A stretch of DNA of 64,000 bases from an uncultured Gammaproteobacteria bacterium (GTDB taxonomy: Bacteria; Patescibacteriota; Patescibacteriia; UBA9934). The notes beneath the pieces were generated by a model. The model ran no database searches, was not told where the DNA came from, and worked only from the letters and a program-made list of their open reading frames with translations. The position numbers and the translations under genes were made by a program. The stretch spans positions 54,903 through 118,902 of the forward strand of contig CAZTKG010000003.1 in NCBI GenBank assembly GCA_964613815.1, written 5' to 3'. Below, piece after piece: positions 51,671-60,975 of this stretch (position 1 is its first letter; the number at the start of each line of letters is the position of its first letter).

Positions 51671-54600
51671 CTAGAACTGTAGTGATCCACCTGTTACAGG
51701 TAGGTCGTCGACGAGATACGCACCCCATCGTTCCTGTGCTGCAGTTGAAACGGTTGTTGAACCGTCGTCCTGCCATACAAAGGCACTTGGAAGTCGATCT
51801 AGGTCGTCTGATGCAACACCGGTCGCGTCAGTCGCTGAGTTGAGGTATCCACGGACAACTGTAAGTGTTGTTCCATCAGGTACCGCTGCAACGAGCATGC
51901 GCTCTTCTCCTGTGTCACAGTCCCCCCCGTTGTCACTGTCGAGACAGATGATGTCTCCAGCTGTGTATCCAGACGAATCTGTCACAGTAAGAGTTGTATC
52001 AGTCGTGTCACTAAGTGTTTCGTTGAGGGTTGAAGATCCGATGTAGGTTGTTACAAGTGGATCTCCGCTGAGCTCGAGCTGCATGGAGTCATCGTTTGTT
52101 GATGAAGCCCCTGTTGAGTCGAGGTACACAGCATAGGTGTAAGTTTCACCAGCTGGGATGGTCTCAGCAGTGCTGAGGGCCAAAGCGATGAATCCTACGT
52201 CTTCTGATGAACAGCTGTTCGCACTTGTGTCGAGCAATGTCCAGTCAGAGTCTGAGTCAAGAGCTGTTGACGTTCCTTCCTTAGACAAGTTGTAGATGTC
52301 CATGTCAGAAGTTTCAAGCTCTCCAGAAGCACACTGGTTCCAGTCTCCTGAACCGTTGTCGGTTGCAGAGAACTTCCATACCAACTCTTCGAGCACTACA
52401 TCTTCACCTGAAGAAGCAGCAACGTTGAATCGGAATACTTCCTGGTCGCTAGGAACCTTACCAGTTCCTGAAGGACTGTCGTCAGACAATGTAACGGTTG
52501 GCTGAGTTTCACGGATAACGAATGTGTTGATTCCGTCTGTGCCTGATGCGTCGTCTCCGACAGCACTTACGTCATCGTCATCATTTGTTACACCAGATCC
52601 AACACCAGCTGCCTTGAAGTTGTCGTCGTTTGTTGCGTCAACGAAGAATCCCATTCGGATCTTTTCGTTTGATGTAGCTGAACCTTCAGAGTTTCGATCT
52701 GTTGAAGGAACGTCTACGTATACGCTGACGTGAGCCTCATCCTCTTCTGTTACGTAGAGGTTGATACCTGAGAACTTCGCCTCATTACCGTTCATTGACG
52801 TTGTGTCGGTCGTGGTTGTTCCGTCCTCGAGTGGGTACTCAAGCGTTACGAGAGAGATGTTGTTCGCGTATGCAGAACTGTCTGAAGACGCTGCATCATC
52901 CTCCGCCTGCTCTTCTGAGAAGGTGATGGTGGTGATTTCGAAGTCTTCGTTTGTTGCATCGATCTCGTAGGTTGCAACCAAGTTGTTCGTGCTTCCTGTC
53001 ATGATGAAGTCAGCACTTGGTGTGTCTGCTCCCTTTGCCACGCTCAAGCTTCCAGCGGTGTTGATCGTAACAACATCTGTTGGAGATGTAGCGCCGTTCG
53101 GGTCGTCAGTCGTTGGGTCAACATCGGTTCCGTCTTGGTCTTCAGCAACGATGTCTTCTGACATGTCGTTGATGTCGAATGCGACGTATCCAGCTGATCC
53201 TCCTGGGTTTCCGAAGTTACACTCAACTGCAAGGATTTCGCTATCTCCAGCTTCGATAAGCCAGCTCACGTCGTCAAACAAGATTGTTTGACCGTTTGAA
53301 GCAGGGCTATCTGGGCCGTCGAGCAAGTCTCCAGCAGCGTCATAGATAGAACATGACTCAACGTAGTCGTTTACGTCGACACCTGTTACATCACCAAGAG
53401 TGAATGTTCCAGTTCCATCAGCATCAGCGTACACAGAAAGTGTAATGCTTGAGATGGTTGTGTCTCCAGCGTCACCAGCATTTACTGAGTAGTTTGCGAC
53501 ACCAACGTCGTCCATACCCATAACCGTTGTAACATCTCCCGGTGTTGATCCAAGAGCGATCACAAGGCTAGCTGATTTTGCTGACTGATCTTTACCAACA
53601 ATGTCTCCACTTGGAACGATTGAAGCGGTAGAAATCGTGTCTCCGTTTGAGTCCTGTGCTGAGAATTCTGAGATGTCGAGAACAGCAGATACTTCTGTTC
53701 CAGAAGTCATGTTGTTGTCGATGTCTGCAGTCACTGCAAGGTTCAATGTTTCTCCGGCGGCCATTGTGAAGTCGTCAGAGAAGGTGAGAGACTGGAATCC
53801 GTCGTTTCCGGTTGTTGATGGGTCGACAGGTCCCATGATGGTCGCTCCTGTGTCGGCGTTAATGATCTTGATGTCACTAACGTTCGCTTCTGCTGTTGAC
53901 TGGTTGTTGACCAATCCGTCGTCGTCAGCAGTTGAGTCATCATCTGATGTACCGCTGTCGTACGCGTCGTTGTCGCCGTCGTCATCAGCAGCAATGATGA
54001 AGTCCATGTCCTTAACGGTGATTGCTTGCGCAGCCGTTAGGGTGTACTCGAAGAGTACGTTGTCCTGGCTGTTTGTGGTGATGTCACCAGCTCCAGGTCC
54101 AGTCCATGCCATGGTGATTTCTCCGCCTTCGATGGTACTGAATGAACAGTTACCCGTTGAAGCGGTACATGATGCACCATCGTATGTTCCAGATGTTGCG
54201 ATGTCGACAGTCATTCCGAATCCAAAGTCTCCACCAACAGCGAGCACGTCGGCCGCGTTGTCAACGTAAACCTTGATGTTGTCGGTTGCATCTCCGCCAA
54301 TGTCTGCTGACACGGTGAAGACGTTACTGTTTCCATCTGAGATTGAGAATGCTTCGCTAAGGTTGAACTTCACGAGCTTGTCGCCTAGGTATTCACCTGA
54401 TCCAAGCATGTCTGATCCATCCCAGAGCTGGTAGTCTGAGTGGTCGTCTGCGCTGTCAATCTTAAGCGTAATCTCTTCGATCTCTGCAGCCTCGTTGTCT
54501 GCTGCAATCTTGAACTGTCCGATTGTTTCGTCGTTACCACCAAGTGTTGGATCGCTAACGGTTCCACTCTTGGTGATTGTGACTGTTCCAGCAGATGAAG

Positions 54601-55780
54601 AAGCGATTGAGAACGTGTTTCCGCTTACAGGGAAGCTTCCGCTTACGTCTCCACCGTCTGCATCTACGTCGTCAGCTGAAGAGATTTCGAAAGCGATCTC
54701 GTCTCCAGAAGAAGCACTAGATGAAACTTCGATTCGCGCCGTGAGCGTTCGTGCCTCACCTGCGTCGAGTGAAAGTCCAAGGTTTGAGAATGTTACCTGA
54801 CGAGTTGATGCGTTTACTGAACGCGCGTCTGTAAGACGTGTTGATCCCTCGTATAGGTAAGCGTTTGAAATGTTTGTTGTTGCTGCGACACTAGACAATG
54901 TTAGGACCACATCGTCGAATGTTGCTGCGTCGTCACCAGCCGCTACGTCGAAGCTGAAGACTTCAACAGAGTTTGCTCCTGTTGGAAGCGTTGCTCCTGA
55001 AGGAGTTGATGAAGAAGTTGAAAGAGTCACTCCACCAGCATCTGAGCTAGTGTCTGTGTCTGTATCTGCTGTTCCGCCCTGCTGAGCTGCGTCAGTCAAA
55101 GCTGAAACTTCTCCGTCGATGTCGTCTCCAGCAGATAGACTGCTGTCGTCGATACTGTCACCTGAGAGGAATGATGAATCCCAAAGTCGGTTTGCATCTC
55201 GTCCATCTTCGGTGAGCATGCGCTTTTCTCCGTCCCAAGCAATGTAGTAGTCACTTCCGTCCATGTATGTCATTCCATCGAATGCAGACGCGGTTGTTAG
55301 TGATGATCCTACAGAGTAGTCAACGAAGAACACGTCAGGAACATCGTCAATCGTTGATGCCCATGAGTCGCCAGCGAGTCCGCTAGCTACGTCTTCTGTT
55401 TCAACCCAGTGGATTGTTCCATCGGTTGCCACAGCGTACGTTTTTGCGTCGCTCTGGATCTTGATCCATCGGACACCTGGTCGGTAGACCACGTTTCCAG
55501 CCAATGAGATGTCTGCAAGATCGCTATCTGAGATCTCGTTTACATCGTCAAAGTCTGCATACCAAGTTTTGTATGTCTTTTCGTTAGAGAACGTGTAGCG
55601 TGATCCGTCGTAACCGTAGTAGTAGAGCGTTGAAAGAGATTCACCCTTGATGAGTGACCCCATGTCAGCAGCGCTTGCTGAAGGAACAGCAAAAGCGGCA
55701 ATACCGACTGCCCATAGAACAGTTGCGGCGGCAATTGTAATCGCTAACGCACGTTTTCCGATTGTTAACACATTTTCCAT
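51671..55780 (-). CDS. giant secreted Ser/Thr/Asp/Gly-rich cell-surface protein (S-layer/adhesin-like)
   Basis: The ORF is open to 55801. I prefer the start at MENVLTIGKRALAITIAAATVLWAVGIAAFAVPSASA, a signal peptide. The remaining roughly 1350 aa are Thr/Ser/Asp/Gly-rich with many degenerate repeats. Confidence 0.7.
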   Translation of the reverse strand: MENVLTIGKRALAITIAAATVLWAVGIAAFAVPSASAADMGSLIKGESLSTLYYYGYDGSRYTFSNEKTYKTWYADFDDVNEISDSDLADISLAGNVVYRPGVRWIKIQSDAKTYAVATDGTIHWVETEDVASGLAGDSWASTIDDVPDVFFVDYSVGSSLTTASAFDGMTYMDGSDYYIAWDGEKRMLTEDGRDANRLWDSSFLSGDSIDDSSLSAGDDIDGEVSALTDAAQQGGTADTDTDTSSDAGGVTLSTSSSTPSGATLPTGANSVEVFSFDVAAGDDAATFDDVVLTLSSVAATTNISNAYLYEGSTRLTDARSVNASTRQVTFSNLGLSLDAGEARTLTARIEVSSSASSGDEIAFEISSADDVDADGGDVSGSFPVSGNTFSIASSSAGTVTITKSGTVSDPTLGGNDETIGQFKIAADNEAAEIEEITLKIDSADDHSDYQLWDGSDMLGSGEYLGDKLVKFNLSEAFSISDGNSNVFTVSADIGGDATDNIKVYVDNAADVLAVGGDFGFGMTVDIATSGTYDGASCTASTGNCSFSTIEGGEITMAWTGPGAGDITTNSQDNVLFEYTLTAAQAITVKDMDFIIAADDDGDNDAYDSGTSDDDSTADDDGLVNNQSTAEANVSDIKIINADTGATIMGPVDPSTTGNDGFQSLTFSDDFTMAAGETLNLAVTADIDNNMTSGTEVSAVLDISEFSAQDSNGDTISTASIVPSGDIVGKDQSAKSASLVIALGSTPGDVTTVMGMDDVGVANYSVNAGDAGDTTISSITLSVYADADGTGTFTLGDVTGVDVNDYVESCSIYDAAGDLLDGPDSPASNGQTILFDDVSWLIEAGDSEILAVECNFGNPGGSAGYVAFDINDMSEDIVAEDQDGTDVDPTTDDPNGATSPTDVVTINTAGSLSVAKGADTPSADFIMTGSTNNLVATYEIDATNEDFEITTITFSEEQAEDDAASSDSSAYANNISLVTLEYPLEDGTTTTDTTSMNGNEAKFSGINLYVTEEDEAHVSVYVDVPSTDRNSEGSATSNEKIRMGFFVDATNDDNFKAAGVGSGVTNDDDDVSAVGDDASGTDGINTFVIRETQPTVTLSDDSPSGTGKVPSDQEVFRFNVAASSGEDVVLEELVWKFSATDNGSGDWNQCASGELETSDMDIYNLSKEGTSTALDSDSDWTLLDTSANSCSSEDVGFIALALSTAETIPAGETYTYAVYLDSTGASSTNDDSMQLELSGDPLVTTYIGSSTLNETLSDTTDTTLTVTDSSGYTAGDIICLDSDNGGDCDTGEERMLVAAVPDGTTLTVVRGYLNSATDATGVASDDLDRLPSAFVWQDDGSTTVSTAAQERWGAYLVDDLPVTGGSLQF

Positions 55781-55939
55781 AAATCTGTAATGCCTTTCCA
55801 TTTAAGAGTAGAGGGTTGAGCGGCCACTGCGGCCTCGACCTTTAAGCTTTCACCCTAATTTTAACTGACAACCTAACGTGAGAATGCGACGCACTCTCAT
55901 GGCAAGGGCCTGCAGCCCCTGCACATGAATTTGCGTCTT

Positions 55940-57070
55940 TTATTTGATGACTTCCGTGATCTCCTCGATTCCCTCTGTATTGATAGACACTTCGCCCTCC
56001 TGTTGTTCGGACACCGCCTGCTCCTCTGACATGCTTTGCGCGGTCATGATGCCGATTTCTATTTCTGCAAGCTCTGCCTCTATCGCGAGAATGTCCTGCG
56101 TTGTTGCCTCTAGAATGTCGAATGCTGCGCGGAACCCTCCTGCTGCCATGAAGCTCATGGCCTGGGAGACGTCCTCTGTTGACTTGGCGAGCTGGAAATT
56201 GAGAGCTGCTGTATCTGCCCCTGCGAGGAACGTGTCTGTGATGAGATCTGGATTTACGTCGAAGAAGTTCTGAATGACGACGAGCCTGCCGTAGTCAAAT
56301 GTTTGCCGGGACTGGATTGCTACGTAGTCTTCTTTGAACTTTTTGCTGAGATCTGCGCTTGTGACGACCTCTTCTGACTGCTCATGCGTTTCGACAAGGA
56401 CATCTGTGACGGTTTCTGATACGGCCCTCGATGCGTCCTCTGCTTGTTTTACTGATTCCGTGAGTACCGCCTCTGGATCGTTTTCTGCCTCCGTATTTAA
56501 TGCAATTGTGAGTGTGTCGATTTTTTCGTCTATTTCTTGCGCCACCTTCGCTGCTTCGCTACCTCCCTCGACCTGCAGAAGCTTGAGCTGACCGTCTGCG
56601 AGCTGGAGCTCTTTCTTGAGGGCCGTCATGGTGCTTTCGATGTGCTCACCTCTTGATGCGCCCTTTAGGGCAACGACCTCTTGAAGTCTTCGTTCTGCGT
56701 ACTGTGTGTGGAGGACCGCCCTGCTTTCGTATGACGCAAACTGGAGACGCGCTTGCTCGGTTGCTAGCTTGAGACTGTAGAGCGTGTCGCCTGGGAGTGC
56801 CGCGTGTGCGCCCTGGAAGGTCCCGATACCTCCGATGAGGAGGACGCCGATCATTGCTGCTGAAATTGCCGGCTGACGAAGTGCTGCTTGGAGTGTCCAG
56901 ATCGCTCTTGTGAACGCCGTCTCTTGTAGAGGTAATGACGCTGGCTCTTTTTGATCACTTCCGATCGCTGCCATGATTTGAGCGCGTTTTTGCTTTTTGA
57001 TCTCAAAATTTGATGCGCCGAGTCGCTCATCGTTTCTTTGATTCTTCAATTGTTCGAAGATGTCGTTCAT
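55940..57070 (-). CDS. putative anti-sigma factor, single-TM (DUF5667-like)
   Basis: Overlaps the ECF sigma stop by 4 nt. One TM (AISAAMIGVLLIGGIGTF), then an extracytoplasmic Ala/Glu-rich domain. Confidence 0.5.
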   Translation of the reverse strand: MNDIFEQLKNQRNDERLGASNFEIKKQKRAQIMAAIGSDQKEPASLPLQETAFTRAIWTLQAALRQPAISAAMIGVLLIGGIGTFQGAHAALPGDTLYSLKLATEQARLQFASYESRAVLHTQYAERRLQEVVALKGASRGEHIESTMTALKKELQLADGQLKLLQVEGGSEAAKVAQEIDEKIDTLTIALNTEAENDPEAVLTESVKQAEDASRAVSETVTDVLVETHEQSEEVVTSADLSKKFKEDYVAIQSRQTFDYGRLVVIQNFFDVNPDLITDTFLAGADTAALNFQLAKSTEDVSQAMSFMAAGGFRAAFDILEATTQDILAIEAELAEIEIGIMTAQSMSEEQAVSEQQEGEVSINTEGIEEITEVIK

Positions 57071-57609
57071 TTTTTCTTGTTTGCCTCCATGATTCTTTGG
57101 AGCGCTCGTTTTGCTCTATGTAATGACACACGAATGTTATTTGGCGTCTTTCCGAGGATTCTCGCGATCTCCTTTATCTCCATTTCGTTTAGGAACTTGA
57201 GGATGATGAGTTCGCGGTACTCTTCTTTGAGCTGTCTGATTCCTTTTGCGAGCTTTCCTGCTGCATCTTTTGTATCCAGCTCGTGCTCGATATTTTCTGA
57301 TGAGGCGATTGCTTCTGCTTCGCTGATGTCGCCCTCGATAATGCGTTTGCGGTAGAAATCTGCCACGAGTCTTGTTGCGATGCGATAGAAGAGTGCGCCG
57401 GCGTAGTTGACCCTGCTTGCTGTTGCGTACTCCCAGCCGCGGAGGAAGACCTCTCCTGCGAGCTCATCTGCGTCGTGCCCGGTAGGGAGTTTGAAGAAGA
57501 GATAGCGGCGGATCTTTTCGAAGTAGGCGTCGTAGAGCTCGCCATATGCTTCGGTATCGCGGTGCGCGTATACGCGGTGCAAAAGGAATTGTTGTTTTTT
57601 CGCGTTCAT
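57067..57609 (-). CDS. ECF-type RNA polymerase sigma factor (sigma-70 regions 2 and 4)
   Basis: Region 4 HTH LIILKFLNEMEIKEIARILGKTPNNIRVSLHRAKRALQ. Region 2 around FLRGWEY. Confidence 0.85.
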   Translation of the reverse strand: MNAKKQQFLLHRVYAHRDTEAYGELYDAYFEKIRRYLFFKLPTGHDADELAGEVFLRGWEYATASRVNYAGALFYRIATRLVADFYRKRIIEGDISEAEAIASSENIEHELDTKDAAGKLAKGIRQLKEEYRELIILKFLNEMEIKEIARILGKTPNNIRVSLHRAKRALQRIMEANKKK

Positions 57610-57750
57610 GTCGCGTACATCTATATAGTCGTGGAAATGATGAAATCATTACACTTGGAAAAATATTGTGGGTATCTTGCATTAATTTGCGAATCTTGGC
57701 GAGGACGTAAAAGGTCTTTCGACCTCACGTCCCAAGGGCCCGCTGTTCTG

Positions 57751-57774
57751 TTTGTCATCGGTTTCTTTGACAAA
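57751..57774. promoter_or_regulatory. inverted repeat TTTGTCA-N10-TGACAAA upstream of the HTH gene (candidate operator)
   Basis: Perfect 7-bp arms at 57751-57757 and 57768-57774, about 50 nt upstream of the ATG at 57826. Overlaps a TTGACA -35-like hexamer. Confidence 0.3.
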
Positions 57775-57825
57775 TGATCTCTTCTTGTCTAGGCTATTAT
57801 TGACATTAACTTTTGGTCTGGATTT

Positions 57826-58101
57826 ATGACTACTCCATCTGCGAATACCGTTCGACTTTCTGTAAGTGAGGCCGCTAAGCTTTTTGGAGTGAGTACGCGA
57901 ACGATTCGCCGAGCTATTGCGGATGGGAGCGTTTTGTATATTGTCGTGCAGGGGCGTTATAAGTTAAGCTTTGATTCGCTCCTTTCTTGGTCTCAGCGGA
58001 AGCCTACGATTCGCAAGAAGCGTGATCGTGATGGAATTGGGCAGTATGTGGAACAGTGGAAGATTCGGAATCCGCACTTCTCTCCTGGTGACCAGGAATA
58101 G
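57826..58101 (+). CDS. excisionase-family helix-turn-helix DNA-binding protein
   Basis: LSVSEAAKLFGVSTRTIRRAIADGSV, a MerR-superfamily/excisionase-type HTH. 91 aa. Confidence 0.6.
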   Translation: MTTPSANTVRLSVSEAAKLFGVSTRTIRRAIADGSVLYIVVQGRYKLSFDSLLSWSQRKPTIRKKRDRDGIGQYVEQWKIRNPHFSPGDQE

Positions 58102-58117
58102 CGACAGGAGGACATAA

Positions 58118-59317
58118 TTGCTTATTGTGTCCAATCGAAAAGAAGACGAATTTTTGTATCGGGAGCTTTGTGAGCTGCCGACCTTCCCTTTTCATGCTTT
58201 GACCCGGCCGAGCAAGGAAAGCGTAACGCGATCTCGGTTGGCGTTTTTTGATACGCGAAAATTGCCGAGGTTTGCCTACCCCCGTGCTCGTAGGTACCCG
58301 GTGGATGATTATTTGCAACATGTTGACGGGTTTTTGAAGGTGATTTTGACGAGCAAGGTGCGAGCTAGGGTTCAGGAGCTGTATGTCGCGAAGGCTCGAG
58401 AGCTCCGGCTTCGGGCGGAGATCGTGCAGGCGATTTGCGCTGGGGATGATGAGGGAGTGAGCACGAAGACGCTTGAGCTATTTGGACCGATCGCGAATAC
58501 TCGAGGCGAACTTGAGGCTGAGTTTGGAGAGATGATTTCTGGGGGCACCCCTTTGTATCGGCATGAAAAGCGGATTAATGCGGAAATGATGCATGGGATG
58601 GTTGAGAGCGCGCTGCAGCATTATGGCATTACGAATGTTGATATTCGTCCGACGGGGCGGTCTGGGATGCGGGTTGCGCAGATTCCGGGGGCTGGGATGC
58701 GCGTGAAGATTCCTCGGGATATTTTGATTTCTCGAGCTCGGGCGGTGAGATTGATTGCACATGAAATTGAGGTACATGCGCTTCGGGCGCATAACGGAGC
58801 GAATAGTCCGCTCATGATCTTGGCTCGTGGACTGGATGGGTATTTAGCGACTGAAGAGGGGTTAGCGATTTGGCATCAGAATTCGATGAGCGGGAAGGCT
58901 CGGCGGTTTGATCCGGGGTTTTGGGAGGCTTATGCGAATGTTTTAGCTGGAGAGATGTCATTTGTGGAGGTTTTTGATGTTTTGAGTCAGGCTCGTGCAT
59001 TGCTAGCTGATCATGTTGGGAATGAGGATCCTGTAGAGGCCGGGCGTGATGCTGCTTGGCGGCTCTGCCTGCGGGTTTATCGGGGGATTTCGAAATTTGA
59101 TACTGCTGGAGTTGGCTTTTATCGGGACCACGTGTATCGATCTGGACTTATGATGGTTCGAAATGTGATCCATGATGGCTACAAGGAGAATATTCGGCCC
59201 CTCTTTTCTGGGAAGCTCGGTGTCAATCATTTGGATAAACTTTCTGATATTGAGTTAGGACATGTTCGCGTGCCCGAAGGGATTGGGAGAGAAATCGTTG
59301 ATTCCGCAATGCTATAG
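58118..59317 (+). CDS. DUF1704-family protein (QEGLA-motif, MATCAP-like HExxH metallopeptidase fold)
   Basis: HEIEVHALRAHNG (HExxH) and TEEGLAIW (QEGLA-like). 399 aa. Confidence 0.5.
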   Translation: MLIVSNRKEDEFLYRELCELPTFPFHALTRPSKESVTRSRLAFFDTRKLPRFAYPRARRYPVDDYLQHVDGFLKVILTSKVRARVQELYVAKARELRLRAEIVQAICAGDDEGVSTKTLELFGPIANTRGELEAEFGEMISGGTPLYRHEKRINAEMMHGMVESALQHYGITNVDIRPTGRSGMRVAQIPGAGMRVKIPRDILISRARAVRLIAHEIEVHALRAHNGANSPLMILARGLDGYLATEEGLAIWHQNSMSGKARRFDPGFWEAYANVLAGEMSFVEVFDVLSQARALLADHVGNEDPVEAGRDAAWRLCLRVYRGISKFDTAGVGFYRDHVYRSGLMMVRNVIHDGYKENIRPLFSGKLGVNHLDKLSDIELGHVRVPEGIGREIVDSAML

Positions 59318-59345
59318 ACGGCTTCTAAGCTTTATCAGCCAATAG

Positions 59346-59370
59346 AAAAACCCCCTCTTTAGCTAGGGGG
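59346..59370 (-). terminator. terminator hairpin at the convergent junction
   Basis: CCCCCT-ctttagct-AGGGGG. On the minus strand it is followed by a T-run and overlaps the stop of 59363..60058. Confidence 0.5.
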
Positions 59371-60058
59371 ACTTGGCGCGCACCTCCTTTGCCCTGAGGC
59401 ATTTGGAGATGTAGAGAACTCTTGTTGCCAGGGACTCGTGGAGCCATGCGGCTCGTGGCTGGTCGGCTGTTGCGATCGCGGCCTCTAGCGATCTGAGCAG
59501 GCCTGGCTCTGTCGCCTGCCTCACGACCGCCTTGTGGCCCTGGATGTACAGTAGGCCGCTTTTGTGGCGACTCGTCATCCATGCGAATTTCATGATTGTT
59601 CGCGGATCCAGCCCGCTTATTTCGGCGAGTTTGGATAGCATTGCCCAATGGACAACCTTCGCCTCATTGTCCTGAAATGCCACACGTGATGGGACTCGGT
59701 CTTTCCATTGGAACTTGGCCGGGTGGCTGCCGAGGCCACTTGCCGTCACGCGCCTCCCAATCCTTGCCTCCCAAAAACCGCCACCGTCTCCAGAGATTGT
59801 TGCGATCGGGCACGGACTCCAGAGAAGCAACATCTTGGCTTGCATGATTGGCCCAAGGTTTTCAACGCTTGTCACAACGCCTTCTACCCTGCTTGATGCG
59901 ATCACCCTTGGTCTTTCCAGAACCGCACAGGTCAGCCTGTGTGTGAAGACCTGAGCCTTTGCAGCGAACATCTCTTCTGGAATTTTTCCTTCCCCGATCT
60001 CCAGATTGCCGGTGACAAGTCCGGATTGATATGAGCCCAGAACTGCTTGAATGCGCAT
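59363..60058 (-). CDS. hypothetical protein
   Basis: The ORF is open to 60199. I prefer the start at MRIQAV, which has GGAGAAGAA 5 nt upstream and lies downstream of an intergenic terminator hairpin. No recognised motif. Confidence 0.4.
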   Translation of the reverse strand: MRIQAVLGSYQSGLVTGNLEIGEGKIPEEMFAAKAQVFTHRLTCAVLERPRVIASSRVEGVVTSVENLGPIMQAKMLLLWSPCPIATISGDGGGFWEARIGRRVTASGLGSHPAKFQWKDRVPSRVAFQDNEAKVVHWAMLSKLAEISGLDPRTIMKFAWMTSRHKSGLLYIQGHKAVVRQATEPGLLRSLEAAIATADQPRAAWLHESLATRVLYISKCLRAKEVRAKSP

Positions 60059-60135
60059 TTCTTCTCCTGAATGAACTGTTCTTGGATGTTTTCCAAGGCA
60101 GATGAGAATATCACTCCTCGTGCTTTTTGTCAATG

Positions 60136-60158
60136 AAAAATCCCCTCTTTCGGAGGGG
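60136..60158 (-). terminator. rho-independent terminator of 60162..60839
   Basis: CCCCTC-tttcg-GAGGGG directly after the stop. On the minus strand it is followed by ATTTTTCATT. Confidence 0.55.
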
Positions 60159-60161
60159 TTG

Positions 60162-60839
60162 CTATGCGCAGATCGCGATGAATGTGCCGGTGTCTTCAAG
60201 GGTGTCTGGATGGCGGGCCCAGCCGAAGGGGATGGCTTGGCGGGTCCAGCGGGTGAGGATAGCGATGCGATTGAAGGCTTCGCGGTCGCCGATGGCGGCG
60301 TAGAGCGCGAGGGCGCGGAGGCCTGAGAAGATACTGAAGGAAAGGAGCGTGGCCAGATTTGGGCTCGGGAGGCCGAGCCTACGTCCGAGCTCCCTCCCGA
60401 TCGCGTTCATCGGATGCTCACCGCCAAGCGCCGTCTCGAGGGCGGAAAACTCCGATACCTTCCTTCCGCAGCGAGAATCACTCACGGCCTCGTCGTAGAC
60501 CTCTGTGCGCAGACGAAGCTGTACGCCATTTGTCAGCACCCCCTGCAATGCATCGCTTGCCGGCGCCAGAACCAACTGTCGGAACTCGCGTTCACGAATC
60601 CATCCCGGGCGCTTCAGTGGCACGCTGAGTTCTCGGAACGAGATGAAATGCACGGCGTCGACCTGCATTCCGGTGGCTGCAGCTACCTGTGCCGCATACG
60701 TTGACTCCATGCGGCGCATGGGAGCCTGACCGCGCAGTGACATCGACACTAACCACTCCGCGTGTGTTCTGATGTCTTGCTTTGCCCAGGGCCGATGCTT
60801 TTCTGGGATGAGTTCGAGGATTGCTTCTGTGAGGGTCAT
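60162..60839 (-). CDS. hypothetical protein
   Basis: 225 aa with no recognised motif. GC is higher than flanking DNA. Confidence 0.4.
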   Translation of the reverse strand: MTLTEAILELIPEKHRPWAKQDIRTHAEWLVSMSLRGQAPMRRMESTYAAQVAAATGMQVDAVHFISFRELSVPLKRPGWIREREFRQLVLAPASDALQGVLTNGVQLRLRTEVYDEAVSDSRCGRKVSEFSALETALGGEHPMNAIGRELGRRLGLPSPNLATLLSFSIFSGLRALALYAAIGDREAFNRIAILTRWTRQAIPFGWARHPDTLEDTGTFIAICA

Positions 60840-60975
60840 GATCTCTCCTTGAAAGAACTTTTGGGAGTTTACTGATATTTTCTTGTGTGCGCAATGGATG
60901 CTCCGTCGTGGGATTGCCGCGTTGCGCTCGCAATGACTGCTGAAACCAAAAACACCCTCGCTTGGCGGGGTGTTT

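Follow-up and report, generated by a model that had tools for sequence, protein, structure and literature searches.

The stretch of DNA analysed here, referred to as the window, covers 64,000 nucleotides (positions 54,903 to 118,902, forward strand) of contig CAZTKG010000003.1 in the assembly GCA_964613815.1, from an uncultured bacterium of the Patescibacteriota. Towards its right end, a gene for a small helix-turn-helix (HTH) protein is followed on the same strand by a gene for a protein of the MATCAP family of metallocarboxypeptidases. A palindromic sequence precedes the pair, and an operon for an extracytoplasmic function (ECF) sigma factor runs away from it in the opposite direction. The features of the locus are as follows.

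51671-57609, minus strand: divergent operon identified by Pfam matches, with genes for the ECF sigma factor (57067-57609), a DUF5667 protein (55940-57070) and a 1376-residue 'giant' protein (51671-55801).
57751-57774, no strand: operator-like palindrome O1, TTTGTCA-N10-TGACAAA (equivalent to TTTGTC-N12-GACAAA), with arms at 57751-57757 and 57768-57774.
57767-57772, plus strand: predicted -35 hexamer TTGACA, the right arm of O1, in a register conserved in relatives.
57784-57807, no strand: O2, a degenerate copy of the 24-bp palindrome, spanning the -10 hexamer and the likely transcription start.
57790-57795, plus strand: predicted -10 hexamer TAGGCT (TACnCT in relatives), 17 nt after TTGACA.
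57826-58101, plus strand: gene for the HTH_17/excisionase-family DNA-binding protein, 91 residues.
58106-58111, plus strand: Shine-Dalgarno sequence AGGAGG of the peptidase gene, located 6 nt upstream of TTG 58118 (15 nt upstream of GTG 58127).
58118-59317, plus strand: gene for the MATCAP/DUF1704-family metallocarboxypeptidase-like protein, 399 residues from a TTG start.
59351-59370, minus-strand score: GC-rich hairpin in the gap that separates the peptidase gene from the next open reading frame (ORF), which converges on it from the minus strand.

Both ORFs and the 16-nt gap between the HTH stop codon and the TTG of the peptidase gene lie where a preliminary description, made by a model from the letters alone, had placed them. 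Public gene calls start the peptidase at GTG 58127, giving 396 residues (P0001). The TTG start is preferred here because AGGAGG is positioned 6 nt ahead of it. No Shine-Dalgarno sequence precedes the HTH gene. The hairpin at 59351-59370 is the sole terminator-like site in a scan of 57400-59600, in which no terminator was found between the two genes, and it is likely to mark the end of the operon. The short gap, the Shine-Dalgarno sequence and the lack of an intervening terminator suggest that the two genes are probably co-transcribed. In GC content, both genes resemble the genes around them. The peptidase gene has a coding-strand GC skew of +0.29, the highest among the 48 ORFs of 150 residues or more that were examined in the window (mean -0.02, standard deviation 0.13), although this set may contain wrong-strand ORFs and the skew may simply reflect amino-acid composition. 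A foreign origin of the gene was not concluded from the skew because of the possible wrong-strand ORFs.

The 399-residue protein matches the Pfam family PF08014 (MATCAP, formerly DUF1704) with 95.5 bits against a cut-off of 27 (E = 4.1e-27), its residues 46-377 aligning with positions 8-330 of the 365-position profile. The gene encodes HEIEVHALRAHNG from position 58760. The hexapeptide HEIEVH is coded at 58760-58777 and EEGLA, which the preliminary description had pointed out, at 58853-58867. The label HExxH that was given to the first motif has the wrong spacing: HEIEVH is HExxxH, as in human MATCAP, and this unusual spacing is characteristic of MATCAP (PMC10499314). The two histidines, the glutamate between them and the EGLA residues are invariant in an alignment of 26 members of the protein's own clade. 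A profile made from these members finds the human MATCAP structures 7Z5G, 7Z5H and 7Z6S (best E 5e-10, for 7z5g), and aligns HEIEVH with HEIGTH and TEEGLA with TEEGLA. The AlphaFold2 model of the protein has a pLDDT of 93.3 and a pTM of 0.91. In Foldseek, chains of human MATCAP take the first five places (E 5e-9 to 1e-8, TM score 0.49-0.59, probability 1.00), with M32 carboxypeptidases ranking after them. The original assignment to DUF1704 is thus borne out by profile, predicted structure and fold comparison alike.

Human MATCAP/TMCP1 (KIAA0895L) and TMCP2 (KIAA0895) belong to the same PF08014 family and carry HExxxH and (T)EEGLA in register with the window protein. The overall fold is the same (Foldseek TM score 0.5-0.6), and the carboxypeptidase (gluzincin) chemistry would be shared by homology (PMC10499314). 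In KIAA0895L the HExxxH motif is accompanied by a ligand from the EEG motif, and the E281A mutant is inactive; MATCAP-type enzymes are carboxypeptidases and deglutamylases (PMC10499314). By this homology, the window protein is expected to be an active, metal-dependent carboxypeptidase. The two proteins are nevertheless only about 18-20% identical, and their N-terminal halves are weakly alignable by sequence. Human MATCAP acts on tubulin, which bacteria lack, so that the substrate of the window enzyme must be different. Unlike its human counterpart, the window enzyme is encoded in a bacterial operon, behind the gene for a DNA-binding protein. Inspection of its N-terminus reveals no hydrophobic segment or signal peptide, which suggests that the enzyme is cytoplasmic.

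Among 1.84 billion library representatives, 3295 belong to the MATCAP family at E <= 0.001. The full-length clade to which the window protein belongs contains about 40 of them, and the score falls from about 220-300 bits within the clade to about 200 beyond it. Public annotation calls relatives 'DUF1704 domain-containing' or 'tyrosine/phenylalanine carboxypeptidase domain-containing'. The NCBIfam equivalog TIGR02421 ('flavohemoglobin expression-modulating QEGLA motif protein') is a proteobacterial branch of the same superfamily, with the same motif set and a similar size (about 370-400 residues). The window protein is not a member, its 94.6 bits being far below the cut-off of 338.65; furthermore, it has EEGLA in place of QEGLA and no ATP-grasp neighbour. 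Genes of the TIGR02421 type are said, in the descriptions of Iyer and Aravind and of NCBIfam, to neighbour RimK-related ATP-grasp ligases. PADLOC and PHROGs gave no matches to the peptidase and only generic HTH matches to the regulator, and a defence-system or phage origin of the pair was rejected on these results.

The 91-residue protein exceeds the cut-offs of PF12728 HTH_17 (30.4 bits, cut-off 27) and TIGR01764 'excise' (30.5 bits, cut-off 28.8), in both cases marginally, in keeping with its first description as an HTH protein of excisionase type. It does not qualify as a MerR-family regulator: the score on the MerR model PF00376 is below threshold (22.3 bits against 28.2), and the 91 residues contain no effector domain. 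The AlphaFold2 model is of moderate quality (pLDDT 70) and has a beta-alpha-alpha-wing topology. Among solved structures it is closest in fold to Xis of mycobacteriophage Pukovnik, BldC, RdfS, RacA and the N-terminal domains of MerR-family proteins, with target-normalised TM scores of 0.6-0.8 over about 45-65 residues. The protein has the winged-helix fold and the HTH_17/TIGR01764 domain of Streptomyces BldC, Pukovnik Xis, RdfS and RacA, is small and lacks a ligand-binding domain. BldC binds direct repeats, whereas the conserved candidate site of the window protein is a palindrome. Relatives are publicly named 'excisionase family DNA binding protein'. There is no integrase or mobile element near the gene, and the protein is therefore not acting as an excisionase in the manner of Xis and other recombination directionality factors.

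The HTH family consists of 913 homologous clusters that are 62-73% identical, with 38 of the 91 positions invariant. The wing is followed by a conserved 30-residue extension, GIGQFVEKWKIKN.LYSPNP. The tail past the conserved domain has 10-25 residues and is variable in both length and last residue, even at loci that contain a MATCAP gene; the HTH protein shows no conserved position at which it might be cleaved or trimmed. The tail was considered as a substrate of the peptidase and rejected, since the HTH C-termini are not conserved. The protein is likely to be a local autoregulator.

O1 ends 51 nt ahead of the HTH ATG, which agrees with the perfect repeat reported earlier at about 50 nt upstream. 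It is the sole perfect 7-bp inverted repeat in the 216-nt spacer between the sigma and HTH genes, and the only TTTGTC-N12-GACAAA without mismatches in the whole 64 kb. The repeat alone is not significant: 16% of Markov-1 random 216-mers contain one of this kind, with 7-bp arms free of mismatches and 3-20 nt between them (P ~0.16). The operator function that had been proposed for it is supported because the palindrome is conserved, both in half-sites and in spacing. The 24-bp consensus upstream of the HTH orthologues is TTTGkCTACaCTaGwGTAGACAAA. Of 82 distinct related loci, 61 have it within 200 nt upstream of the HTH ATG when up to two mismatches are allowed in the arms, the background frequency being 0.024 per 200 nt. 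Five extra sites of the consensus type lie farther up the same spacer in four additional loci, and no site was found elsewhere in the related loci.

The palindrome is closely associated with a promoter. In 48 of 66 palindromic sites, a TTGACA-like hexamer (5 or 6 positions matched) is located exactly 17 nt before TACnCT. The latter falls inside the left half of the palindrome, which therefore covers the -10 hexamer and the likely start of a sigma-70-type promoter. The consensus palindrome is found at -29 to -46 from the ATG in relatives. Its counterpart in the window, O2, is at about -42 and reads CTTGTC-TAGGCTATTATT-GACATT, with three mismatches in the arms. Seven relatives (L004, L010, L057, L086, L093, L095 and L112) have a second site 33 nt upstream, the right arm of which is the -35 hexamer, as is the case for O1. 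A generic promoter scan missed the window promoter, whose -10 hexamer is weak; the register shared with relatives points to TTGACA-17-TAGGCT. As RNA, O1 would form a weak hairpin (-7.3 kcal/mol) that is not followed by a run of T, and on both counts it was ruled out as a terminator. The sigma-HTH spacer contains no recognisable structured RNA, the only Rfam matches in the window at gathering thresholds being two tRNAs elsewhere. Another motif, ATCATTACAC/G, is repeatedly found in the sigma-HTH spacers, in some at a distance of about 40 nt from the start codon of the sigma gene and in others directly ahead of the HTH ATG; the window copy is at 57645-57654.

The genomic context of the pair was examined in two ways. 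A scan seeded with the peptidase, with one genome per species, gave 31 loci. About 20 of these are of the Uhrbacteria type and keep the same block, in which the divergent genes for the giant protein, DUF5667 protein and sigma factor are followed by the HTH-to-MATCAP operon and then by two GT4 glycosyltransferase genes and a Wzy_C gene. This order is maintained while the MATCAP proteins themselves are only 30-42% identical. The two-gene form, with HTH directly followed by MATCAP, is found in the window and in 13 species-level loci, where the gap is about 2-7 nt or the genes overlap. In a four-gene form, genes for a secreted GHL15/FG-GAP protein (~660 residues) and a membrane-anchored DUF11-like protein (~575-617 residues) are positioned between HTH and MATCAP. 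One locus, L028, consists of HTH, a truncated GHL15 gene and MATCAP. Wherever upstream sequence is available, the operon of a clade MATCAP is headed by the HTH gene.

The association is much looser when viewed from the side of the regulator. The HTH search gave 913 clusters against 46 for MATCAP, about 20-fold more. Three HTH contexts that were sampled comprised HTH-GHL15-X without MATCAP, HTH-MATCAP and HTH alone, all with the same divergent operon upstream. For a larger HTH-seeded sample the best 80 of 276 loci were kept, so that it is biased toward HTH proteins like that of the window. The gene after HTH in its 62 classifiable distinct metagenome loci was distributed as follows.

GHL15: 40 loci.
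MATCAP: 7 loci.
Nothing, with a convergent GT4 gene next: 7 loci.
Other or unassigned: 8 loci.

Three of the 19 loci that begin with GHL15 and have enough downstream sequence end in MATCAP, and the peptidase is present in roughly a fifth of the HTH loci. The ECF sigma/DUF5667/giant-protein operon, by contrast, is upstream of HTH in nearly every related locus with enough sequence (more than 80 loci). The constant element is the HTH gene divergent from the ECF sigma operon, and the peptidase is an accessory passenger. The preliminary view of a dedicated regulator-peptidase pair is not supported, as the HTH family is much the larger and most of the sampled loci have no MATCAP gene.

The four-gene form was that of the first four relatives examined, and the window was for a time taken for a deletion derivative of it. 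In a rough neighbour-joining tree of the sigma, DUF5667 and MATCAP proteins, which carries no support values, every deep branch has the two-gene form, and the four-gene form is limited to a single sub-clade. As the tree leaves the direction of change undecided, the idea of a deletion was given up.

It had been stated that bacterial DUF1704 genes usually accompany ATP-grasp ligases and that no such partner is present in the window. The latter is supported. No ATP-grasp domain was found by Pfam in the 30 ORFs scanned at 1-48 kb (nearly all of those with at least 270 residues) or in the neighbouring genes up to 64 kb. A hidden Markov model built from the ATP-grasp domains of fusion proteins of the candidate phyla radiation (CPR) had no match in the window or in the approximately 20 clade loci, none of which has an ATP-grasp gene within 10 kb. 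The association with ATP-grasp is true of the family at large. Fusions of an ATPgrasp_ST domain to MATCAP, 786-987 residues long, occur in Peribacteria and in unclassified bacterial metagenome-assembled genomes (MAGs) (L031 and L033-L035), and in a member of the Peregrinibacteria (L032) the ATP-grasp gene is adjacent to MATCAP, not fused. A ligase next door in relatives, which according to the preliminary description would make the pair a standard module, is a feature of distant CPR homologues and not of the clade itself. Nor is the missing partner unusual, because three stand-alone homologues from outside the CPR, in Myxococcota, Enterobacterales and Desulfonatronum MAGs, likewise have no recognisable ATP-grasp gene next door.

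The fusions share with the window a MATCAP domain of 25-30% identity and all come from MAGs, several of them CPR. Their ligase is part of the MATCAP polypeptide itself or, in L032, the product of a neighbouring gene, whereas the window clade is stand-alone and occupies a different conserved locus. Two of them, L031 (7889-10942) and L034 (7696-10825), from unclassified CPR MAGs, resemble the window in having a gene for an HTH_17 protein (221-250 residues, with a long coiled coil) 4-8 nt upstream of the fusion gene. This protein is not orthologous to the window HTH, and these loci represent a second lineage with the order HTH_17 then MATCAP. In the Peregrinibacteria and Peribacteria, a 7TM_transglut protein is encoded directly upstream of the ATP-grasp/MATCAP genes (L032 6881-8374, L033 882-2435); that of L033 contains a PKD domain, and in L033 a second ATP-grasp_3 gene lies downstream. 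A different architecture is found in Porphyromonas MAGs (L029 6722-10549, L030 1816-5643), where a 1275-residue protein combines DUF4062, an NB-ARC/STAND ATPase and TPR with a C-terminal MATCAP domain. Several proteins of 1100-1400 residues with a C-terminal MATCAP domain are present in the 50% representative library. These proteins suggest that MATCAP domains serve as effectors of STAND NTPases, perhaps in a conflict system.

The whole window is a cell-envelope region. To the right of the pair are genes for two GT4 glycosyltransferases and a Wzy_C protein. The 64 kb also contain genes for Mur ligase, MurG, FtsW, MraY, FtsX, an S41/PDZ peptidase and RmlD, together with a sugar dehydratase and many GT2 and GT4 genes. 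The closest relatives of the Patescibacteria MAG from which the window comes are Uhrbacteria. Homologues come from organisms named Candidatus Uhrbacteria or Patescibacteria group bacterium, and a 194-kb scaffold from a groundwater metagenome carries identical proteins. The 1376-residue giant protein is acidic, rich in Thr, Ser and Asp and of surface type; its C-terminus reads ...YLVDDLPVTGGSLQF. Nearly all of its orthologues end in F/Y after LP(V/I)(T/S)GG, with or without MATCAP at the locus.

Two minus-strand ORFs, 59363-60199 and 60162-60839 (region 59325-60975), have a GC content of 0.58-0.63 against about 0.50 around them. They have no Pfam, NCBIfam, PADLOC or PHROG match and are missing from this slot in all relatives. 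In other genomes this slot holds different insertions, one of which is the restriction-modification pair of L007 (9356-11434). The slot between the peptidase and the GT4 genes looks like an insertion hotspot.

These observations can be combined into a mechanism, in which the region is the right-hand half of a divergent regulatory node conserved in Patescibacteria of the Uhrbacteria type. A sigma-70-type promoter, with its -35 hexamer at 57767-57772 and -10 hexamer at 57790-57795, would drive a short bicistronic hth-matcap transcript. The HTH protein, a winged-helix protein like Xis, BldC and MerR, would bind palindromes of the form TTTGkC-N12-GACAAA, at O1 over the -35 hexamer and at O2 over the -10 hexamer and transcription start. 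It would thereby repress the operon to which its gene belongs, and control of the divergent ECF sigma/DUF5667/giant-protein operon is a further possible role. The genes behind HTH would be interchangeable passengers (GHL15/FG-GAP hydrolase-like protein, DUF11-like membrane protein, GT4 glycosyltransferase or MATCAP-like enzyme), the MATCAP-like enzyme being the sole one in the window genome. This enzyme would be a cytoplasmic zinc gluzincin carboxypeptidase, with the two histidines of HEIEVH and the second glutamate of EEGLA as metal ligands and the glutamate of the HE pair as the catalytic residue. It would most probably shorten the C-terminus of a protein, a peptide or an amino-acid-decorated precursor by a single residue or a few. 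From the kinds of passenger and from the cell-wall and glycan genes nearby comes the guess that its substrate belongs to a cell-envelope programme, and the fusion of distant relatives to a 'sugar-transfer-associated' ATP-grasp domain was counted in favour of this context. Taken as a whole, the model of an autorepressing HTH protein, a peptidase on the same transcript, an active zinc carboxypeptidase and an envelope-linked substrate is considered probable, with moderate confidence.

Several points weigh against this model. The window has a poor -10 hexamer and a degenerate O2, and the conservation of the palindrome is partly confounded with that of the promoter. The MATCAP-carrying sub-clade L013-L015, L017, L019, L020 and L023 lacks the 24-bp palindrome. 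Gene neighbourhood in small genomes is weak evidence of substrate, and the neighbouring gene products function in the membrane or extracellularly, in contrast to the enzyme, which lacks a signal peptide. The search for ATP-grasp genes covered 64 kb of the genome, and a ligase may be encoded elsewhere. As to the sub-clade without the palindrome, its members have a strong TGTATATAAT box and then a conserved ATTTGGCTAAGGTTCGCATAAGACGTAAG upstream of HTH; this arrangement may be a diverged operator fitting their diverged HTH protein (~65% identical).

The alternatives differ in which part of the model they replace. O1 might have no operator function and be either a chance repeat or a -35 hexamer with a fortuitous partner. 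The result with random sequences, the identity of its right arm with the -35 hexamer and the weakness of its RNA hairpin all fit this idea. It is nevertheless clearly unlikely, given that the same half-sites and 12-nt spacing recur in 61 of the 82 loci, confined to the sigma-HTH spacer, that a promoter alone does not need a 24-bp symmetry, and that seven relatives have two sites 33 nt apart. The peptidase, on the other hand, might be half of a ligase-peptidase cycle, the other half being an ATP-grasp amino-acid ligase encoded elsewhere in the genome. Eukaryotic MATCAP opposes ligases of the ATP-grasp fold that act on tubulin, and homologues in Peregrinibacteria, Peribacteria and unclassified MAGs are fused or adjacent to ATP-grasp, sometimes along with 7TM_transglut. 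The absence of such a gene from the surroundings of the clade loci and, as far as recognised, from the window makes a split cycle rather unlikely, especially as the three stand-alone homologues from outside the CPR also lack a recognisable neighbouring ligase.

Two further readings concern the relationship between the two genes. That they form a dedicated module, or an Xis-like HTH protein with its cargo on a mobile element, as the preliminary description had it, would explain why every clade MATCAP is downstream of HTH, why the spacing is tight or overlapping in two-gene loci, why the HTH protein scores on excisionase and recombination directionality models, and why a second CPR lineage has HTH_17 just upstream of an ATP-grasp-MATCAP fusion. 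The excess of HTH clusters over MATCAP clusters speaks against it, and the HTH-seeded sample, in which most loci keep the flanks without MATCAP, largely refutes it. Furthermore, the genes flanking the pair in the window encode no integrase or transposase domain, the flanking synteny is kept at 30-60% protein identity, and the GC content is like that of the neighbours, all of which make this reading improbable. An HTH gene beside a zinc peptidase gene is also the classic layout of repressor/anti-repressor pairs such as ImmR-ImmA and DdrO-IrrE, where, as in the window, both are in one operon. Here the peptidase would trim or cleave the HTH protein and relieve repression. The recurrence of the HTH_17-then-MATCAP order in a second lineage and the 10-25-residue tail of the HTH protein are compatible with such a switch. 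It is very improbable in view of the variable HTH C-termini, even in MATCAP loci, the equal conservation of HTH where MATCAP is absent, as it is in most relatives, and the peptidase itself, which is of another family and has the carboxypeptidase fold of MATCAP and M32 and not that of an ImmA-type endopeptidase.

A more specific proposal for the substrate is that the enzyme is 'detyrosinase-like' and trims a terminal aromatic residue from a cellular protein, for example the giant protein. The C-terminus of the latter, ...LP(V/I)(T/S)GGxxx(F/Y), is conserved, and eukaryotic MATCAP removes such residues. The F/Y is, however, kept in the absence of MATCAP, and export takes the giant protein out of the compartment, apparently the cytoplasm, in which the enzyme resides. 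The terminal residue was rejected as a substrate signal because it is equally conserved in loci without MATCAP, and serves only as a lead; the proposal as such is highly improbable. If it were true, the HTH protein would couple tail trimming to the ECF-sigma envelope programme.

The pair adds a new member to a known family, and the probable autoregulation of its operon is of an ordinary kind. The description of the node is useful but unsurprising and does not overturn current understanding. It was only in 2022-2023 that the eukaryotic members of the family became known as enzymes that trim tubulin tails. A full-text search of the literature turned up neither a characterised bacterial MATCAP/DUF1704 protein nor any paper on bacterial members of the family or on the present locus. 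The clade described here represents a compact, stand-alone and apparently active bacterial version in a conserved, probably autoregulated operon, and is a tractable candidate for studies of the ancestral enzyme's function in the absence of an attached ATP-grasp ligase. The Uhrbacteria node combines a conserved Xis/BldC-like regulator, a 24-bp palindrome, a divergent ECF sigma/giant-protein operon and a slot in which passengers are swapped. As these passengers are envelope-related, the node could help to read the cell-surface biology of uncultured CPR bacteria.

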